A stretch of DNA of 35,957 bases from a virus. The position numbers were made by a program, and so were the translations under genes. The stretch lies in the IMG/VR virus record IMGVR_UViG_3300023223_000133, positions 1 through 35,957 of that record. One strand, given 5' to 3'. The notes under the pieces were generated by a model. The model was not told where the DNA came from, did not search any database, and saw nothing but the letters and a program-made list of their open reading frames with translations. This document shows, piece after piece, positions 2,324 to 35,957 of the stretch; positions within the stretch are counted from its first letter, which is position 1, and each line of letters opens with the position of its first letter.

Positions 2324-3513
2324 TGGCCATTGACCCAAGAATATCACTAGCAGGTATCGTACCTCAAACGCAATCAGCACAGACTGTATCTAATATATTT
2401 CAGTCTAACCTGAATAACGCCCAAAATAGACGCGCGAATGAGCAAAACATACAGCAACAAGCAGCCTTACAGCCTTTTCAATTACAACAGGCTCAGCAAA
2501 TCGAGGCAGCAGGAGAGCAGAGCGCAGCATTTGAAGCTGAAAACGCCAATATCAGAAGTTTAGTCGAAGCAGGTGTCCCACTTAAATCATTCTTAGAATC
2601 AGGTGATAATGAAGGGGCTGTTCAATTCCTGCAAAACAGAAGGGCAGAAATTACCGCTCGTGGTGGTGATACTGCTCAAACTGATGGCGCACTAAATCAA
2701 ATACTATCTGGTAATCCTCAGAATGTTTTACAGGGTATTCAAGCCAATGAAACTATTGCACAGCAACGTGGATTGCTTGGTGTATCTCAAATGTCAGTAG
2801 GGCAAAGGGACTTTGAATCAAAGGTTAATATTGTTAAGAATGATCCTAACCTAGAAACGGCAGAGGGAAAGGCAGCAGCTATCGCGTTAGGACTAGAGGC
2901 TAAAGCATCATCAGCAGCGCAAATACAAATAGCAAAAGATCCAGAGCTAACCAAAGCGGTGGCGGAATCTGAGGCCACAATAGCGGGCGCTAAATCCGAA
3001 GCAACTGAAGGCGAAAAGCTTAAGCAGCAACGTAAACATAAGCCAGCCATTATAGCGCTTAGTAAATTAGCTGAAAAAGCAGCGATTGAAAGAGGTGAAG
3101 TGCTAACCGATTTATCTAGAATGGAAGCTACATTGCCTGGGTTGTTAGAGGTAACTTCTGAGCTTAAAGAGTTAGCAACAATAGCAACTAGCACATTGGG
3201 CGGCAAAGCCTATGACGCTATAGTTAAACAAACTGGATTCGGAGCAACTAAAGGATCAACCGCTAGAGCAAAGTTTATAGCTATTATAGACAATCAAGTA
3301 TTGCCACTATTAAAGCCTACTTTCGGCGGTTCATTTACAGTTGGTGAGGGTGACGCTTTACGGGCTACACTTGGCGATCCAGATGCGACTTTGGAAGCAA
3401 AGGTTGAGCAAATAAACGCATTTATAGCACAGAAAGAAAGAGATATAAGAAGCAAGCAAACTCAAGCAGCTTCCAGTGATGAAGAATTCGCGGGATTTAA
3501 GGTGGTTCGATAA
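2323..3513 (+). CDS. Putative ejection/internal virion protein (position of P22 gp20), 396 aa
   Basis: TAATG coupling to the upstream gene. Gln/Ala-rich, low-complexity, coiled-coil-like sequence. Synteny only. Confidence 0.5.
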   Translation: MAIDPRISLAGIVPQTQSAQTVSNIFQSNLNNAQNRRANEQNIQQQAALQPFQLQQAQQIEAAGEQSAAFEAENANIRSLVEAGVPLKSFLESGDNEGAVQFLQNRRAEITARGGDTAQTDGALNQILSGNPQNVLQGIQANETIAQQRGLLGVSQMSVGQRDFESKVNIVKNDPNLETAEGKAAAIALGLEAKASSAAQIQIAKDPELTKAVAESEATIAGAKSEATEGEKLKQQRKHKPAIIALSKLAEKAAIERGEVLTDLSRMEATLPGLLEVTSELKELATIATSTLGGKAYDAIVKQTGFGATKGSTARAKFIAIIDNQVLPLLKPTFGGSFTVGEGDALRATLGDPDATLEAKVEQINAFIAQKERDIRSKQTQAASSDEEFAGFKVVR

Positions 3514-13615: not shown

Positions 13616-13635
13616 TAAACATATAAAGGAAAACA

Positions 13636-13737
13636 ATGAAACACTACGCAAAACAGATTAAAGAAAACGAAACTAAACTAGCGGCGGCGATGGAAGTAGG
13701 CGAGGATGAACAAGCCAAGACTTCAAGCTGCCATTGA
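13636..13737 (+). CDS. Small coiled-coil ORF (33 aa), apparently interrupted by a +1 frame change (the continuation ends at 13771)
   Basis: AAGGAAAA RBS. MKHYAKQIKENETKLAAAMEVGEDEQAKTSSCH stops at 13735-13737. The next frame continues sensibly as LQAAIDDYKQMQKQVK. Confidence 0.35.
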   Translation: MKHYAKQIKENETKLAAAMEVGEDEQAKTSSCH

Positions 13738-13813
13738 TGATTATAAGCAAATGCAAAAACAGGTTAAATAAACATGATATACTAACTACGCAAACAGGAT
13801 TACCCGACAAACC

Positions 13814-13841
13814 AAAAAGCTATCATCGCGATAGCTTTTTT
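13814..13841 (+). terminator. Rho-independent terminator ending the replication operon
   Basis: aaaaagctatc-atcgc-gatagcttttt followed by t. The A-run/T-run symmetry makes it potentially bidirectional. Confidence 0.75.
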
Positions 13842-13856
13842 ATTGGGTGAAATATA

Positions 13857-13960
13857 GCTAGAATTTTCTGTGAATTTTTCGCAACACGTTGAGCTCACTT
13901 TAAACTATTGATTTAACTTATAATTTTACTGTGAAAATACGCTAGAATTTCTGTGTGAAA
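13857..13960. repeat. Iteron-like direct repeats in an untranscribed AT-rich gap
   Basis: GCTAGAATTTTCTGTGAA (13857-13874) and GCTAGAATTTCTGTGTGAAA (13941-13960) are 84 bp apart, with a third CTGTGAAAA core at about 13930. Terminators bracket the gap on both sides. Confidence 0.6.
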
Positions 13961-13970
13961 ATTTGGCAAT

Positions 13971-14000
13971 AAAAAAGACCGCTATAACTGCGGCCTTTTT
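13971..14000 (-). terminator. Rho-independent terminator ending the leftward 16140->14044 operon
   Basis: On the minus strand: aaaaaggccgc-agttata-gcggtctttttt (one mismatch in the stem, strong T-run). Confidence 0.6.
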
Positions 14001-14043
14001 AATTTAATATTCAAGTATGTTACATATAATCTATAACAAGTAA

Positions 14044-26670: not shown

Positions 26671-26831
26671 TGGTTACCATTCATTAAACTTTCTAATAAT
26701 ATTACATGGTAGGGATAAGGGTGATATTAGTAACATTTTAAAACAATGCTTAACACCTAGGTATGGATCAAACACCAACCATTTTAAGCACCAAAAGAGC
26801 ATAATCACATAACTAATAAATACATATTCAA

Positions 26832-27128
26832 TCATTCCTCATCACTCCCAATAATTACTTTACCTATAATTTTATAATCACGGCGCTGATATGGCATCCA
26901 ATCAGTAGTCCTAGTTATCCCTGTCATAACGTCTGAACTCATGGAGCTAATCTCCAAAAGAGAATCGTACAACCTCCTATTTAAATCAAAACTGTACCAT
27001 TCTAGGGAGTGCTTATTGTTATTCTCAACAATTAACAACCCGTTATTGTAAAACTTAACCTTTGGCTTTTTATCTCTATTGACTTTTTCGGCCCACTTAC
27101 CAACCGCGTTAAAAATTCCTATATTCAT
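26832..27128 (-). CDS. Cassette gene 9, hypothetical (98 aa)
   Basis: ATGA overlap with the upstream small ORF. No family recognised. Confidence 0.6.
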   Translation of the reverse strand: MNIGIFNAVGKWAEKVNRDKKPKVKFYNNGLLIVENNNKHSLEWYSFDLNRRLYDSLLEISSMSSDVMTGITRTTDWMPYQRRDYKIIGKVIIGSDEE

Positions 27129-27274
27129 AACCCTAACCCTATCCTTACAGCCTTACACACAAGGCTGAGCCTAATTGAATAAACAGGAGTCTTACAGCTA
27201 CCCCTGCTACCACGTTTCACCCTAATTACTGGCTTTTGTATGAATGCCACTAATGGAAGTGCTGCCATATTCAT
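27125..27274 (-). CDS. Cassette gene 8, small basic peptide (49 aa), below the ORF-track cutoff
   Basis: Translated by hand: MNMAALPLVAFIQKPVIRVKRGSRGSCKTPVYSIRLSLVCKAVRIGLGL. TAATG overlap upstream and ATGA overlap downstream fill what would otherwise be a 145-nt gap. Confidence 0.4.
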   Translation of the reverse strand: MNMAALPLVAFIQKPVIRVKRGSRGSCKTPVYSIRLSLVCKAVRIGLGL

Positions 27275-27459
27275 TAGCCTTTACCCCACCAAAGAGCAGC
27301 ATTAGCAATACTCATTTGTGTAATTATAAGATTAACCCCGGTGTTGATAGCGTCCTGTTTAGCTTTATGTTTCGCCATAGATTGATAATGCTTTAGCCTC
27401 TGTTCGCGGTTCTCAGCTTCGAGCTTCAGTATGTATTCAGCCATTCCTGATTGAGTCAT
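27274..27459 (-). CDS. Cassette gene 7, hypothetical (61 aa) with a hydrophobic C-terminus
   Basis: ATGA overlap upstream. ...GVNLIITQMSIANAALWWGKG. Confidence 0.55.
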   Translation of the reverse strand: MTQSGMAEYILKLEAENREQRLKHYQSMAKHKAKQDAINTGVNLIITQMSIANAALWWGKG

Positions 27460-27791
27460 TCTATTTCCCCATTGTTAAACATTGTCACAACCTTGTTAGC
27501 TTGCTCGTTGACTAACCGGTAAAAGAATGATTTCTTATTCCTGATATCAATACCCTTTGCAATATCCTTCTTAGCTGCTGCTAGTAAGGTATCTTCAAGC
27601 AATTCGAGTATAGCCTCATCATCTTCAAGTAAAGCTTTAGTTACCTTATACTTAAAGCTATCACCCTCTAAGCGGCTAACCTTCTTTGTTAGGTTATCAT
27701 TTAGTAATCTCAAAGCGTCAATAGTATCATTGGCGCAAGATAGGTCAGATGTTAAGGTTTTAATAAGCAACTTACCTTTACTGAAAAACAT
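27456..27791 (-). CDS. Cassette gene 6, coiled-coil protein (111 aa)
   Basis: It abuts the upstream stop (TAA then ATG). Heptad-like LRLLNDNLTKKVSRLEGD. Confidence 0.6.
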   Translation of the reverse strand: MFFSKGKLLIKTLTSDLSCANDTIDALRLLNDNLTKKVSRLEGDSFKYKVTKALLEDDEAILELLEDTLLAAAKKDIAKGIDIRNKKSFFYRLVNEQANKVVTMFNNGEIE

Positions 27792-27905
27792 TTAATACTC
27801 CTCGTAAACGTCAACATCAATACCGAAAGCTAATGCAATCTTGTTTATAGCTTCGATTGCTAGTTGCTCGCTACCTAACTCTTCTATAAGTTTGTCGATA
27901 TTCAT
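27792..27905 (-). CDS. Cassette gene 5, acidic peptide (37 aa), below the ORF-track cutoff
   Basis: MNIDKLIEELGSEQLAIEAINKIALAFGIDVDVYEEY. AAGGTGGTGG RBS and an ATGA overlap upstream. Confidence 0.45.
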   Translation of the reverse strand: MNIDKLIEELGSEQLAIEAINKIALAFGIDVDVYEEY

Positions 27906-28054
27906 AGCACCACCACCTTAACTACTGGCATTGTCCACATCATCACAGCTATCACCGCTATAGCAATCACTGAAACTATCAGCATTCTGCGAGTTGTCTT
28001 CTCATACTCTGCTATCTTTACGCGTTGTTCTTCTGCTTTTTGTTGGTTATTCAT
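27902..28054 (-). CDS. Cassette gene 4, single-TM peptide (50 aa), below the ORF-track cutoff
   Basis: Translated by hand: MNNQQKAEEQRVKIAEYEKTTRRMLIVSVIAIAVIAVMMWTMPVVKVVVL. ATGA overlaps at both ends. Confidence 0.5.
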   Translation of the reverse strand: MNNQQKAEEQRVKIAEYEKTTRRMLIVSVIAIAVIAVMMWTMPVVKVVVL

Positions 28055-28416
28055 AGTCCGTGACCCTCTTCAAATTGTGATAGGTCGATACATGCAAGCC
28101 TTGTTGTTTTGTTCGACTCATTATCGGCGACCTCTCTGGTTGCGTGTATTGGTGATTCACAGTACCTACTAGCGTAAATATTAATAAACCCACTAAGCTT
28201 TTTAGGTGCCATGAAAAGGTCGCCACCACACTCATTGGTGCCCTTGTGATAATTACCAGCAACAAACCATTGTTCAACATGGTCGTTATCAACATCATAC
28301 CCGTAAAGTATAGGGTCGTTAGTATGATTGAATACATGGAATTGCGTAACCTCGCGCCCGTCTCTAGTCACAACCTTGTCACCCGCTAATGCTTTTTCTA
28401 AATCGAATTTATCCAT
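28051..28416 (-). CDS. Cassette gene 3, hypothetical (121 aa)
   Basis: MDKFDLEKALAGDKVVTRDGREV...GGDLFMAPKK resembles a widespread phage hypothetical family (from memory). The overlapping ORF 28047..28337 is rejected. Confidence 0.65.
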   Translation of the reverse strand: MDKFDLEKALAGDKVVTRDGREVTQFHVFNHTNDPILYGYDVDNDHVEQWFVAGNYHKGTNECGGDLFMAPKKLSGFINIYASRYCESPIHATREVADNESNKTTRLACIDLSQFEEGHGL

Positions 28417-28540
28417 TATTCTTATCCTTTTGATTTAATCGCCATTGTTTAACCCTACACGCTGAGCTGCATACTTTTGCATCTTCGCGCACAGGTTGAT
28501 CTTTCTTCTTGCATACAGGGCAGTCTATTAATTTAGTCAA
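28409..28540 (-). CDS. Cassette gene 2, Cys4 zinc-ribbon peptide (43 aa), below the ORF-track cutoff
   Basis: Translated by hand: (TTG)MTKLIDCPVCKKKDQPVREDAKVCSSACRVKQWRLNQKDKNNG. The CPxC-x13-CSxxCR pattern is a common phage zinc ribbon. It has 8-nt overlaps at both ends. The non-ATG start lowers confidence. Confidence 0.4.
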   Translation of the reverse strand: MTKLIDCPVCKKKDQPVREDAKVCSSACRVKQWRLNQKDKNNG

Positions 28541-28973
28541 AATTTAAGCTATCCCAATAGTCAGGTCTACCACAATCAATCACATCAAAATCTTCAGTTA
28601 AATCTTTGATTGCCCCGTATGCACTCTTAGCTTTTACCATGGCGAATTCAGCGTGACCTATTTGTGACAACTTTCTTTTTTTATACGAATGCAAAGCCTC
28701 TTTCTTTGTTGGGTAACAGAAGCGCCTCATACTATCTTTTGATACCCTTCTTGTTTTGGGTATCCTGTCAGGGTTTCTTTTTTGTATCAACATAGACCAA
28801 TGATCAATCACCATATAAAAACAAGGAGTCTCGCGCACAGGATAAAGCCTTCTAACTCTAACCTCTATCCCATCCTCGCTAATGTAATCATCGTAACGGT
28901 AATGAATGGGCAGGTCATTTAATTTTTCCTCATCATTCACCAACCTTAGCCCATCAGTAATTTTGTCTCGCAT
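28533..28973 (-). CDS. Cassette gene 1, hypothetical basic protein (146 aa)
   Basis: GGAG RBS and a promoter upstream. RRVSKDSMRRFCYPTKKEALHSYKKRK resembles a motif seen in many phage hypotheticals. No function known to me. Confidence 0.65.
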   Translation of the reverse strand: MRDKITDGLRLVNDEEKLNDLPIHYRYDDYISEDGIEVRVRRLYPVRETPCFYMVIDHWSMLIQKRNPDRIPKTRRVSKDSMRRFCYPTKKEALHSYKKRKLSQIGHAEFAMVKAKSAYGAIKDLTEDFDVIDCGRPDYWDSLNFD

Positions 28974-29001
28974 ATTTTATCTCCATTGATTAATTGCCTC
29001 A

Positions 29002-29029
29002 AGTGTAACGCATATCCGTTTCAAGTCAA
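29002..29029 (-). promoter_or_regulatory. Sigma70-like promoter of the counter-oriented cassette
   Basis: On the minus strand: TTGACT, 16 nt, TACACT, ending about 29 nt upstream of ATG 28973. Confidence 0.5.
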
Positions 29030-29035
29030 CACTAT

Positions 29036-29064
29036 TTGTTAATTAAATTGCAATGCTGTATAAT
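29036..29064 (+). promoter_or_regulatory. Sigma70-like rightward promoter (module B) with ATTGCAAT in its spacer
   Basis: TTGTTA, 17 nt, TATAAT. The palindrome ATTGCAAT lies at 29047-29054. Confidence 0.5.
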
Positions 29065-29070
29065 TGGTTT

Positions 29071-29199
29071 TGCGGTGTGAAGACCGTTTAAAAAGACAGC
29101 TGGATAGGGTATTTAGACATGTGATCTTTGGTGGGTTTAGTTACACATCAACTGTCGCCCCTCTTCAACAGAGGTTACATGATCTAAGTACCCTTTTTT
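29071..29199 (+). ncRNA. Candidate structured, terminated transcript (module B), about 130 nt
   Basis: A long imperfect hairpin pairs 29107-29127 (GGGTATTTAGACATGTGATCT) with 29172-29193 (AGGTTACATGATCTAAGTACCC). TTTTTT follows immediately (29194-29199). There is no credible ORF or RBS. Confidence 0.35.
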
Positions 29200-29585
29200 G
29201 TATCTAGTATAAGTTAGGCCATAACCGAATTTAAACTATATACAAAGCACATGTAGAACCTAGGAATGATGACAGGTAGTATAATCGACTACCCGCATGT
29301 GCAACCCTTTCAAAGCATCTTCACACAGCCGAATTTTCTCGGTTATCGTAAAAAACCTTAATCAAGCTAACGATTATAATTAGCAAATATCGAATACTTA
29401 GTATTAATCGACTTTTAGACACGAGAATAAACAGCATTTTCTGCATGGTATATGGCTTGGGCAGCCAACAAGGATTGTGAATAGCTAGCTGATACTGATT
29501 TAATACTACTTGATATAAACTAAGCACACTTACTCATCCATGCAGTAACGTGTCTAATGATACTTATTGCCAATAATTAGCATAT

Positions 29586-29614
29586 TTGACCAACCAACTA
29601 TTAAAGAGTAAAAT
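29586..29614 (+). promoter_or_regulatory. Sigma70-like promoter proximal to the head operon
   Basis: TTGACC, 17 nt, TAAAAT, ending 37 nt upstream of ATG 29652. Confidence 0.45.
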
Positions 29615-29651
29615 AAACTCACACCATATTTGAATAACCTTTAGGACTCAA

Positions 29652-29945
29652 ATGAGAAACGAAACAGAACTAGCGGCTGATATTACTAACGCTAAACAAG
29701 CTGAAGCAATAGTAAATCACCCGTTATTCATCGCATCAATTAAATCGTTAAGAGCAGTAACGATTGATAAGTTTGAAAACCTGGGGTTTGAAGATACAAC
29801 GCAAATGCGAGAATGCAACATTAGGCTGAACTTAATAGAAGAACTTGAGATTAACCTATCAACAATTATCAGTAGTGGTAATGCAGCATTCAAAACATTA
29901 GAAGAGATTCAAACATTCAACCAGGAAATGCAAAATGAGCGATGA
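29652..29945 (+). CDS. Hypothetical head-module protein (97 aa)
   Basis: It is the first gene of the head operon and overlaps the scaffold gene start. Confidence 0.6.
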   Translation: MRNETELAADITNAKQAEAIVNHPLFIASIKSLRAVTIDKFENLGFEDTTQMRECNIRLNLIEELEINLSTIISSGNAAFKTLEEIQTFNQEMQNER

Positions 29946-34810: not shown

Positions 34811-35957
34811 TGGCTCAAGAAATAATCAACGTTGGCGGCGCAAATGAAAAACAAGGTGATACGCCTTTCGTGTTTTGCCCTAAAATAAACAGAAACTTTA
34901 CCGAGTTATTCACCATAAAACAGGCGTGCGTTAGTTACATTTACGAAGAGGCTGATTTTCCAGTGCAGGATGCTACAACTATAACACTACAAGCCGATGC
35001 AGCTTATTGTTTATGTGCCCTAATATCCACAGGAAAGAGGTTTATTGTTGAAGATAGTTCCTACATATGCGGAGTTACTCAAACTGTTCCTATGCTTGAA
35101 TATACCGGCACTGGCGTAATGTTCACATCGACAACAGTATGGACTCTTGAAAATCTTGGTTTTACTTGCCCTAATGGAACGGTTTTCAGTCACACCGGCG
35201 CTGGCCAGTTTATAATAATGAGAAACTCAACCTGTTCCAATTGTTTAAATATTGGCACCATAAACTCAAGCGGTTATTTCTCAACAGGCAGCAGTTTTGT
35301 TAATATCACAGGTGCAGGGTTAACCTTTACCGGTGCTAATAACGGGTTCTTATACGCTACTGGTAACATGATCACCTCATCAGCATCAACCACTATTGTT
35401 GACTTTGGCACTGCTACATTCTTTTTAATGCGGGTATTAGATTCCACATATGCGGGGCCACCTGGCGCGGTTGCATTCTCAGGATTACCGGACGGCGCTA
35501 ATATAAACTCAGGCAATAAAGGTGTATTTGAAGTAAATGATTTACAGTCTGGTGGAATAACTCCTATGGCTGGAATGTCACCATCAGACATTAGAATGGC
35601 GGTTAGATTTTCAGATGGGCTAATGGACTCTCGAAACGCTGCTGATATGTTCATGGTTGGCGGCTCTGAAACAATAACGATCGGAGGCTCTAACGAATGG
35701 AATGAAATCGGAGTACCAAGCGGCGGCGGTGTATCTTGGGATAGCGATATAAGTGACAGGTTTACCATAGGTACTGATGGTGTTTTAACCTACATCGGAG
35801 AGGATGATATAGAGGTCACATTAACGGGCAGGGCTACTATTGAAAAGACAGGCGGCGGCTCTGATGTGTTGGAGGTTCGCTTTGCTGTTAATTGGAATGG
35901 AACGGTAAGTGATGGCGGCTTGGAGAAATCAAGAGCGCAAACACAAAACACAACCCC
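34810..35957 (+). CDS. Tail protein, possible second receptor-binding protein; 5' part of a 424-aa gene that continues at 1..271
   Basis: I read the frame from ATG 34810 codon by codon and found no stop before the window end. The ORF track misses it because it has no in-window stop. Its G/T/S/N-rich repetitive strands suggest a beta-helix-like fold. The minus ORF 35274..35768 is its antisense shadow. Confidence 0.75.
   Translation, partial: MAQEIINVGGANEKQGDTPFVFCPKINRNFTELFTIKQACVSYIYEEADFPVQDATTITLQADAAYCLCALISTGKRFIVEDSSYICGVTQTVPMLEYTGTGVMFTSTTVWTLENLGFTCPNGTVFSHTGAGQFIIMRNSTCSNCLNIGTINSSGYFSTGSSFVNITGAGLTFTGANNGFLYATGNMITSSASTTIVDFGTATFFLMRVLDSTYAGPPGAVAFSGLPDGANINSGNKGVFEVNDLQSGGITPMAGMSPSDIRMAVRFSDGLMDSRNAADMFMVGGSETITIGGSNEWNEIGVPSGGGVSWDSDISDRFTIGTDGVLTYIGEDDIEVTLTGRATIEKTGGGSDVLEVRFAVNWNGTVSDGGLEKSRAQTQNTT
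35814..35957. repeat. Second copy of the 144-bp terminal direct repeat
   Basis: Identical to 1..144. Confidence 0.95.

Follow-up and report, generated by a model that had tools for sequence, protein, structure and literature searches.

A conserved RNA with a terminator-like stem and two long-range pairings, proposed as the first domain of a modular leader cassette in marine phages

We analysed IMG/VR virus record IMGVR_UViG_3300023223_000133 over its full 35,957 nucleotides (nt), a stretch called the window below. Its gene content is lambdoid or P22-like, with an O-like initiator, a DnaB helicase, RecT and terminase, then a 700-residue portal protein, and after it scaffold, major head and head-closure proteins. 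The element in question is a cassette of structured RNA in the 678-nt non-coding gap at 28974-29651, which lies at a divergent junction with a minus-strand gene block and faces the head genes, with scaffold and major head protein downstream. The next stretches free of open reading frames (ORFs) measure 428 nt (13616-14043) and 463 nt (34811-35273). The first-pass annotation had called the gap the longest non-coding stretch of the genome; this holds, but only once a 68-residue frame on the minus strand (29321-29527) is discounted. That frame, the only ORF in the gap, has no conserved counterpart in homologues and is not accepted as a gene, which leaves no credible ORF between the promoter and the head genes, as had been claimed. 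The same annotation limited the unit to a promoter and a transcript of about 130 nt. Instead, several conserved RNA modules fill the whole gap. The first, designated RNA1, occupies about 29071-29199; its features, with those of its promoter, are as follows.

29036 to 29064, plus strand: sigma70-type promoter, -35 TTGTTA at 29036-29041, 17-nt spacer, -10 TATAAT at 29059-29064, scoring 10/12 in the scan
29072 to 29087, plus strand: hairpin H1, stem GCGG/CCGU, 8-nt loop UGUGAAGA (29076-29083)
29088 to 29106, plus strand: A-rich linker, containing segment L
29095 to 29103, plus strand: segment L, GACAGCUGG, 5' strand of the long-range pairing PK1
29107 to 29126, plus strand: 5' strand of the long stem P2, GGGUAUUUAGACAUGUGAUC, from folding and compensatory changes
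29127 to 29174, plus strand: three-way junction, with the conserved junction strand UUUGGU and hairpins A and B
29133 to 29136 with 29157 to 29160, plus strand: hairpin A, GGGU with GCCC, 20-nt loop; U-A, U-G and C-G variants occur
29148 to 29156, plus strand: 3' strand of PK1, the 3' part of the hairpin A loop
29161 to 29164 with 29170 to 29173, plus strand: hairpin B, CUCU with AGAG, both sides changed at three of its four pairs
29078 to 29083 with 29162 to 29167, plus strand: long-range pairing PK2, six pairs between the H1 loop and UCUUCA of the hairpin B 5' arm and loop
29175 to 29193, plus strand: 3' strand of P2, UUACAUGAUCUAAGUACCC, with A29182 bulged
29194 to 29199, plus strand: run of six U, directly 3' of the G+C-rich base of P2 (GGG/CCC)

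When 28900-29700 was compared with about 50,000 phage records by distant BLAST, matches were confined to 29072-29205 and came from Vibrio phage NF and Vibrio phage 1.054.O. In each of these two, RNA1 has no annotation and sits in a non-coding gap of about 550-650 nt. A 25-kb part of the window, searched by megablast against phage records, had no match. The alignment of these three sequences keeps the -10 box, the small hairpin, the stem base, a GAUCUUUG...CCCCUC core and the T-run, while the stem arms differ by compensatory changes. Pattern scans of viral, genome and metagenome collections, together with a covariance model, identified 47 distinct copies of RNA1, and anchors that leave the stem sequence unfixed added nine more, some of them divergent. 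The family has at least 55 distinct members. They come from marine viral and metagenome contigs (including Tara), from the two isolated Vibrio phages, and from one contig of a Colwellia metagenome-assembled genome (MAG). Individual homologous loci are cited below by L-codes.

Known families do not account for these sequences. Against Rfam 15, the whole window has no match at the gathering score, and 28900-29700 searched at E <=10 has two chance-level matches, mir-3622 and RMST_3. Twenty relatives returned only transfer RNA (tRNA), and five relatives searched at E <=1 returned tRNA and one small nucleolar RNA match below the gathering score (sR5, E 0.16). No family-level match in Rfam 15 was obtained to GOLLD, ROOL, C4/CI, 6S, Y RNA/YrlA, riboswitches or ribozymes, and searches of the window for tRNA and transfer-messenger RNA found none. 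Judged by the lack of a match in Rfam 15, RNA1 is a new RNA family. Fremin et al. in 2023 reportedly described 10,006 unnamed viral candidate RNAs, and the RNA1 family may be among them.

The promoter TTGTTA-17-TATAAT lies where the first-pass annotation had placed it. As a single match it is not above chance, the whole window having 13 promoter-like sites versus 9.2 +/- 3.0 in shuffles; its significance comes from conservation across homologues. Among 44 distinct homologous upstream regions, 43 have a sigma70 match of at least 9/12 at the same position, versus 8.7% of control windows taken from the same contigs, and 35 have a match of at least 10/12, versus 1.7% of controls. The site ends 6-29 nt 5' of H1, and the hexamers are kept (TTGAAA, TTGATA, TTGACT or TTGTTA; TATAAT, TAAAAT or TACAAT) while the spacers vary. 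By this comparison the RNA1 promoter is under selection, and transcription would start near 29071.

About 40 nt upstream of RNA1, for example in L047, L058, L061 and L055, ORFs that are otherwise unrelated share C-termini of the form ...KLENKGG or ...LENKE, because their frames run on into the promoter DNA, which is conserved (AAACTTGAAAATAAAGGAGG). A shared upstream regulator gene was considered and rejected, the upstream proteins being unrelated. The pattern marks a sharp 5' boundary and suggests that the cassette moves as a unit.

The transcript is predicted to be far more stable than its composition explains. For 29065-29205, RNAfold gives a minimum free energy (MFE) of -50.3 kcal/mol, against -32.3 +/- 3.6 for dinucleotide shuffles (z = -5.06), and 0 of 200 shuffles were as stable. 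The MFE structure pairs GGGUAUUUAGACAUGUGAUC (29107-29126) with GGUUACAUGAUCUAAGUACCC (29173-29193) in a long hairpin with one bulge and several G-U pairs. Comparison supports the stem strongly: over 48 distinct sequences, the cells of P2 are 99% paired, versus 42-57% when partners are slid. Compensatory changes occur in H1 (both sides changed at four of five pairs), in the middle and lower stem of P2, and in hairpin A, and an A-U to G-C change in P2 is seen in copies found from the unbiased anchor. The G-U pair U29112-G29188 is kept in 43 of the 48 sequences, and the model scores the plus strand at 134.7 bits versus 31.8 bits for the minus strand. Frequent G-U pairs and the strand scores together indicate that the RNA is the plus strand.

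The MFE structure is not right throughout. Its distal extension of the long stem, the rival of hairpin B, has no compensatory changes, only U-A to U-G, whereas hairpin B covaries. A single MFE hairpin of 21 bp or more is therefore rejected in favour of a three-way junction, and P2 is, on the covariation, a stem of about 17 bp capped by that junction. The imperfect hairpin of about 21 bp proposed in the first-pass annotation thus stands in its arms, its bulge and its G-U pairs, but not in its distal third. Conserved nucleotides of RNA1 cluster at the three-way junction and on the 5' strand of the lower stem.

A GATC sequence (a Dam site) at 29124-29127, part of the conserved junction strand (GUGAUCUUUGG), is invariant throughout the 47 copies from the first search, which had GATC as a fixed part of its pattern. 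It is absent from divergent copies obtained with other anchors (L117, GTGGCTTCTGG; L120 and L127, GTAATCTCGG). Several cassettes lie just downstream of DNA methylase genes, with no evidence that the GATC link exceeds coincidence.

Two long-range pairings lock this junction, so that RNA1 is not the simple hairpin of about 130 nt first described. PK1 and PK2 were first spotted by eye and then tested statistically. For PK1, every homologue shows complementarity between the linker and the hairpin A loop, over 9.3 bp without a gap on average (range 5-13). The mean duplex energy is -10.2 kcal/mol for cognate pairs versus -5.2 for non-cognate ones, with 0 of 10,000 permutations as good; in 72% of sequences no other partner pairs better than the cognate one, and many positions have changed on both sides. 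No member of the family has a weaker PK1 than the window, where it comprises 5+3 bp and one C.A mismatch. PK2 is 93% canonical, and five of its six positions have changed on both sides in 10-19 of 47 sequences. In these alignments both pairings covary strongly. On geometric grounds, hairpin A stacked on PK1 (about 15-17 bp) could run beside P2 (about 17-20 bp), which would make a compact intramolecular fold plausible.

A variant RNA1 that the covariance model missed lies in L147 at 2980-3210 (minus strand), with the same promoter, H1, long stem and U-run. Its complements of the H1 loop (CUCUCACAC) and of the linker (GUUUAAUUCCA) are adjacent in a single internal loop, so that the complementarity is conserved rather than one fixed topology. 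Folding of truncated transcripts in search of an antiterminator was uninformative, the pseudoknot-blind program pairing the G/U-rich junction strand promiscuously. As to targets outside RNA1, direct and complementary 9-mers shared with the rest of the window occur at about the level of chance, by a rough estimate without shuffle control. The H1 loop has a perfect 9-mer complement at 29318-29326, which relatives do not match consistently.

The T6 reported directly after the hairpin is present at 29194-29199, and a T-run of 5-8 occurs in 54 of 55 distinct RNA1 copies. Together with the GGG/CCC stem base, six U give the G+C-rich base and run of at least five U of an intrinsic terminator. The site is not a compact small-loop hairpin, its "loop" being a three-way junction of about 47 nt, too large for the consensus terminator scan, which makes no call. 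With no call from the scan and a single promoter match at chance, the case rests on the comparative evidence. The U-run may be an intrinsic-terminator-like 3' end or a processing point.

What follows the U-run varies between phages. Six loci (L013, L048, L052, L053, L055 and L078) have a same-strand tRNA gene whose start is only about 0-6 nt from the U-run. Other relatives have, at the same position, a variable insert enclosed by an acceptor-like stem of 7 bp (GUGUCUG...CAGACAC, then A and CC). In the six loci the space between U-run and tRNA gene is too short for a separate promoter, and read-through must therefore occur. The corresponding part of the window, whose slot pairing was read by eye, and the modules beyond it are as follows.

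29200 to 29246, plus strand: degenerate "tRNA slot", stem GUAUCUAGU (29200-29208) with ACUAUAUAC (29235-29243) around a small hairpin
29305 to 29322, plus strand: linker motif, CCCUUUCAAAGCAUCUUC
29302 to 29579, plus strand: RNA2, a second structured RNA block of about 270 nt, pseudoknotted, from similarity and covariation
29415 to 29423 with 29549 to 29557, 29442 to 29448 with 29538 to 29544, and 29400 to 29411 with 29495 to 29507, plus strand: examples of RNA2 helices
29586 to 29614, plus strand: promoter-like TTGACC-17-TAAAAT, scoring 10/12 in the scan, between RNA2 and the first head-operon ORF (start 29652)

The linker motif lies 41-127 nt after RNA1 in 44 of 50 contexts, with one outlier (L056) at +181. 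It is complementary to the 3' arm of H1 and the linker of RNA1 (duplex of about -21 kcal/mol), with weak covariation. Relatives may also have an optional long hairpin, and inserts include T-loop-like hairpins (GGUUCGAUUCC); in L055 a second predicted tRNA sits inside the optional long hairpin. The motif TAGCTCATTTCACTATACAGA of relatives was considered as a phage-type promoter and rejected, since it is the 3' arm of that hairpin, paired with TCTGTATAAGTGAAGTGAG. Inserts between RNA1 and RNA2 in L055, L011, L075 and L016 hold T-arm-like hairpins (GGTTCGATTCC, GTTAGTTCGATTCTAAC), some of which may be tRNA fragments or mimics.

RNA2 shares 96% identity with the Colwellia MAG contig and 72-80% with 15 further loci, and has no conserved reading frame. 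By nhmmer it occurs in 25 of 50 contexts, always downstream of RNA1 and on the same strand. A pattern built for RNA2 only finds divergent members, and in these too RNA1 lies upstream, unless the sequence of the locus ends first; in L147 it is the variant described above. In a hand-built structure of 45 pairs, 86.9% of cells are paired versus 29-41% when slid, and 20 pairs have changed on both sides versus 2-6 in slid controls; none of 500 shuffles does as well. RNA2 is also pseudoknotted, since two of its helices are crossed by a third, of 12 bp. On these comparisons RNA2 is a real structured RNA. The two RNAs are co-linear and each well supported by its own alignment, with weak covariation between the domains. 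In eight loci RNA2 ends 12-25 nt before the next ORF, without a good promoter between.

Loci without detectable RNA2, NF and 1.054.O included, have other conserved non-coding blocks instead. In L022, L023, L068, L044 and L007 a different conserved block of about 190-440 nt replaces it, and NF and 1.054.O have yet other sequence in its position. The 3' module of the cassette appears to be exchangeable. The proximal promoter-like element of the head operon reported earlier at 29586-29614 does exist, but an equivalent site of at least 10/12 after RNA2 occurs in only three of 20 homologues, and it is probably outside the conserved cassette.

Across loci the orientation of the cassette is constant and its neighbours are not. 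In all 33 loci that have a downstream ORF, the first such ORF shares the strand of RNA1. It lies at a distance of 280-940 nt, and no ORF of at least 70 residues intervenes; RNA1 was never found at the end of a transcription unit. Upstream genes include nin-type genes and methylases, and clustering of the upstream proteins from 24 loci gives 23 groups that are unrelated to one another. Downstream genes encode scaffold/capsid, connector, terminase-region, T5orf172, HNH, ParB-like, phosphoesterase and RecT proteins. They are structural or packaging genes in the window, 1.054.O, L016, L022, L032, L041 and L070, and early-type genes (RecT, methylase, ParB-like, T5orf172) in other loci. Since flanking genes differ between loci, the cassette is portable and generic, not tied to one gene.

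The first gene after the cassette is often T5orf172/GIY-YIG-like or HNH/AP2-like (L003, L023, L068, L021, L013, L041 and L007). Such proteins are typical of free-standing homing endonucleases, a hint that the cassette may be connected with mobile endonuclease genes. On the other side, in the window, seven small minus-strand ORFs with no function assigned lie at 26674-28973, between the portal and scaffold genes. The block has one weak PHROG "kinase" match and one match to phrog_13631, the latter being the divergent gene next to the cassette, and it looks like an inserted, divergently transcribed accessory block within the order terminase, portal, scaffold, capsid. Two leftward promoter-like sites, back-to-back with the RNA1 promoter within 28974-29030, could drive it.

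29029 to 29002, minus strand: promoter-like TTGACT-16-TACACT
29002 to 28974, minus strand: promoter-like TTGAGG-17-TAAAAT

These observations lead us to propose, with a probability of roughly 45%, that RNA1 is the first domain of a portable modular leader cassette with a leaky or conditional terminator. The order of the cassette would be promoter, RNA1, tRNA or tRNA-like slot, linker motif, RNA2 (to about 29579 in the window) and genes. Host sigma70 RNA polymerase would initiate at the conserved promoter, and the nascent RNA would form H1 first and then P2, about 17 bp capped by the three-way junction, with the H1 loop and linker pairing with the loops of the two junction hairpins. P2 and the U-run would act as a leaky or conditional intrinsic terminator. 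A part of the transcripts would end at the U-run as a stable RNA of about 130 nt, which in relatives might alternatively arise when RNase P cuts the neighbouring tRNA or tRNA-like stem at its 5' end. Read-through transcripts would carry the tRNA (where present), RNA2 and the downstream genes, in the window those for scaffold and capsid.

The promoter, the fold, the long-range pairings, the co-linear order of modules and the lack of space for other promoters in many relatives are supported directly. The argument for read-through runs as follows. With tRNAs at the U-run, RNA2 abutting ORFs and few later promoters, the RNA1 promoter is the only evident promoter of the unit in many phages, and polymerase must therefore pass P2 and its U-run at least sometimes. 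Passage is required, yet the stem and U-run are kept in 54 of 55 copies, and a leaky or conditional terminator is the simplest reading. Partial termination is thus what the sequences lead us to infer. That PK1 and PK2 tune it would be a further step: both could form before the 3' arm of P2 exists, and topologically they would hinder completion of the 17-bp helix.

Several points weigh against this proposal. The start site, the 3' end and the efficiency of termination are all deduced from sequence. One copy, L083, has no U-run, and nhmmer misses RNA2 in about one third of the loci with enough flank, NF and 1.054.O among them. In the window, the site at 29586-29614 alone could serve the head genes. 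On geometric grounds, both long-range pairings could coexist with P2 in one compact fold and hence need not be a switch. Finally, the fold is more elaborate and more conserved than a terminator needs, a sign of some additional role, for instance in binding a protein or ligand, in RNA-RNA assembly or in acting on RNA polymerase.

The layout had been read earlier as fitting either a stand-alone small RNA or a short leader. As a trans-acting stable RNA, RNA1 would end efficiently at P2 and its U-run and bind a protein, a ligand or another RNA, and its place upstream of the other modules would be gene order, not cis-regulation. It does have its own conserved promoter, stem and U-run; its conserved nucleotides gather at the junction and lower-stem 5' strand as for a binding surface; and its sequence is kept in phages with differing downstream blocks. 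A hairpin followed by a U-rich 3' tail, as here, is also typical of the Hfq-dependent small RNAs of gamma-proteobacteria. Yet such an RNA would not be expected to hold the downstream gene in one orientation in all 33 loci, to have tRNAs abutting its U-run without promoter space, or never to stand at the end of a transcription unit, and the variable segments complement each other, with no obvious target outside, the 9-mer matches being at about chance on the rough estimate given above. We consider this explanation rather unlikely. The leader half of the earlier alternative fits the context better, with the constant strand, the abutting tRNAs and RNA2 close to ORFs.

A second explanation makes RNA1 the 5' domain of one large "ornate" RNA of 0.5-0.9 kb, comprising RNA1, slot and RNA2 and resembling GOLLD and ROOL, in which P2 and the U-run would be a structural hairpin and some loop pairings would be intermolecular and build homo-oligomers. 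Conserved pseudoknotted domains in fixed order with tRNAs within a variable linker, the T-loop-like hairpins of the optional inserts, and the single loop that holds both complementary segments in L147 would fit such an RNA, and GOLLD and ROOL are likewise phage-encoded near tRNA islands and assemble by kissing loops (PMC12286853). However, no similarity to GOLLD, ROOL or other Rfam families is found at E <=10 in the window or at E <=1 in five relatives, the stem and U-run of 54 of the 55 copies resemble an end signal, the 3' domain is replaceable, RNA2 abuts an ORF like a 5' untranslated region, and the pairing between domains has weak covariation support. This makes the explanation improbable. 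So, to a like degree, is the most far-reaching reading of the data, an undescribed class of large modular phage RNA that would decide its own termination without protein through long-range pairings, or pair between molecules into a GOLLD/ROOL-like multimer around tRNAs, or both.

Least likely, and quite improbable, is a late switch of the lambda type, in which the promoter would be constitutive, the short RNA terminated, a Q-like protein recruited at the promoter to express the late genes, and the fold incidental: the strong conserved sigma70 promoter with a terminator-like hairpin within about 130 nt, the structural and packaging genes downstream in the seven sequences named above, the tRNA genes that lie downstream of PR' in Stx phages, and the nin-type upstream neighbours, nin being the region in which Q sits in lambda, would suit it, but the fold and its two long-range pairings are strongly selected and unnecessary for a Q mechanism, the 23 unrelated upstream clusters share no candidate, scans of 30 window ORFs (20 against PHROGs, 10 against Pfam) yielded no Q-like or other antiterminator family, and many relatives have early-type genes downstream.

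To our knowledge, few large multi-domain structured phage RNAs are known. The cassette would add one with at least 55 members, three covariation-supported pairings of pseudoknot type (two in RNA1, one in RNA2), a defined promoter, and a slot filled by a real tRNA in some phages and by a similarly shaped stem in others. It stands directly in front of genes, which offers a simple read-out. Together these features make it experimentally tractable with short templates and compensatory mutants. If the long-range pairings do control the terminator, it would be an unusual RNA-only attenuator; if the RNA assembles, the GOLLD/ROOL phenomenon would extend to marine vibriophages. For annotation, the cassette explains the "empty" 678 nt of the window and the gaps of about 550-650 nt in Vibrio phages NF and 1.054.O. 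The observation made by the first-pass annotation is confirmed and its interpretation partly supported; the cassette would be a new architectural variant, for which a function is proposed only.

Among known systems, HK022 put RNA and EAR resemble the cassette in position alone, each a structured RNA just after a promoter, upstream of terminators and a long operon, acting in cis without a dedicated adjacent protein gene. HK022 put differs in consisting of two simple stem-loops without a terminator, whereas the RNA1 domain includes a terminator-like stem. Attenuation in P4 CI, P1 C4 and pT181 has in common with RNA1 variable, mutually complementary segments in one leader, whose pairing decides there, and may decide in RNA1, whether transcription continues. 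P4 CI and P1 C4 have in addition a link to processing by RNase P, an enzyme that could plausibly cut here as well, given the adjoining tRNA. They differ in that RNA1 has no match to Rfam C4 and no evident immunity context, and its complementary partners are in one molecule, which fits an intramolecular fold. HK022 put and P4 CI/P1 C4 share single features only with the cassette.

The arrangement of lambda PR'-6S-tR', the analogy drawn in the first-pass annotation, corresponds more fully. Both have a strong sigma70 promoter with an intrinsic-terminator-like hairpin within about 130-200 nt and distal operon genes without their own promoter, and some lambdoid phages have tRNA genes in the leader. 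The analogy falls short where RNA1 has a covarying three-way-junction fold, two long-range pairings and further RNA modules, where no Q-like gene is adjacent or detected among the 30 ORFs, and where the downstream genes are not always late.

GOLLD and ROOL, for which no function is known, are phage-encoded and lie near tRNA islands, GOLLD sometimes with tRNAs in its linker, and both assemble by means of covarying kissing loops, which had at first been taken for tertiary contacts and proved to be intermolecular (PMC12286853). The cassette is likewise phage-encoded, in viral contigs and Vibrio phages, lies beside or around tRNA genes (in six loci), is multi-domain and pseudoknotted, and has a variable tRNA-holding linker and covarying loop-loop pairings. 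It differs in matching neither covariance model, in its smaller size (about 0.5 kb in the window), in its promoter-proximal hairpin and U-run, and in abutting a coding gene. Of all these systems, lambda PR'-6S-tR' comes closest in logic, and GOLLD and ROOL come closest in genomic setting and complexity.

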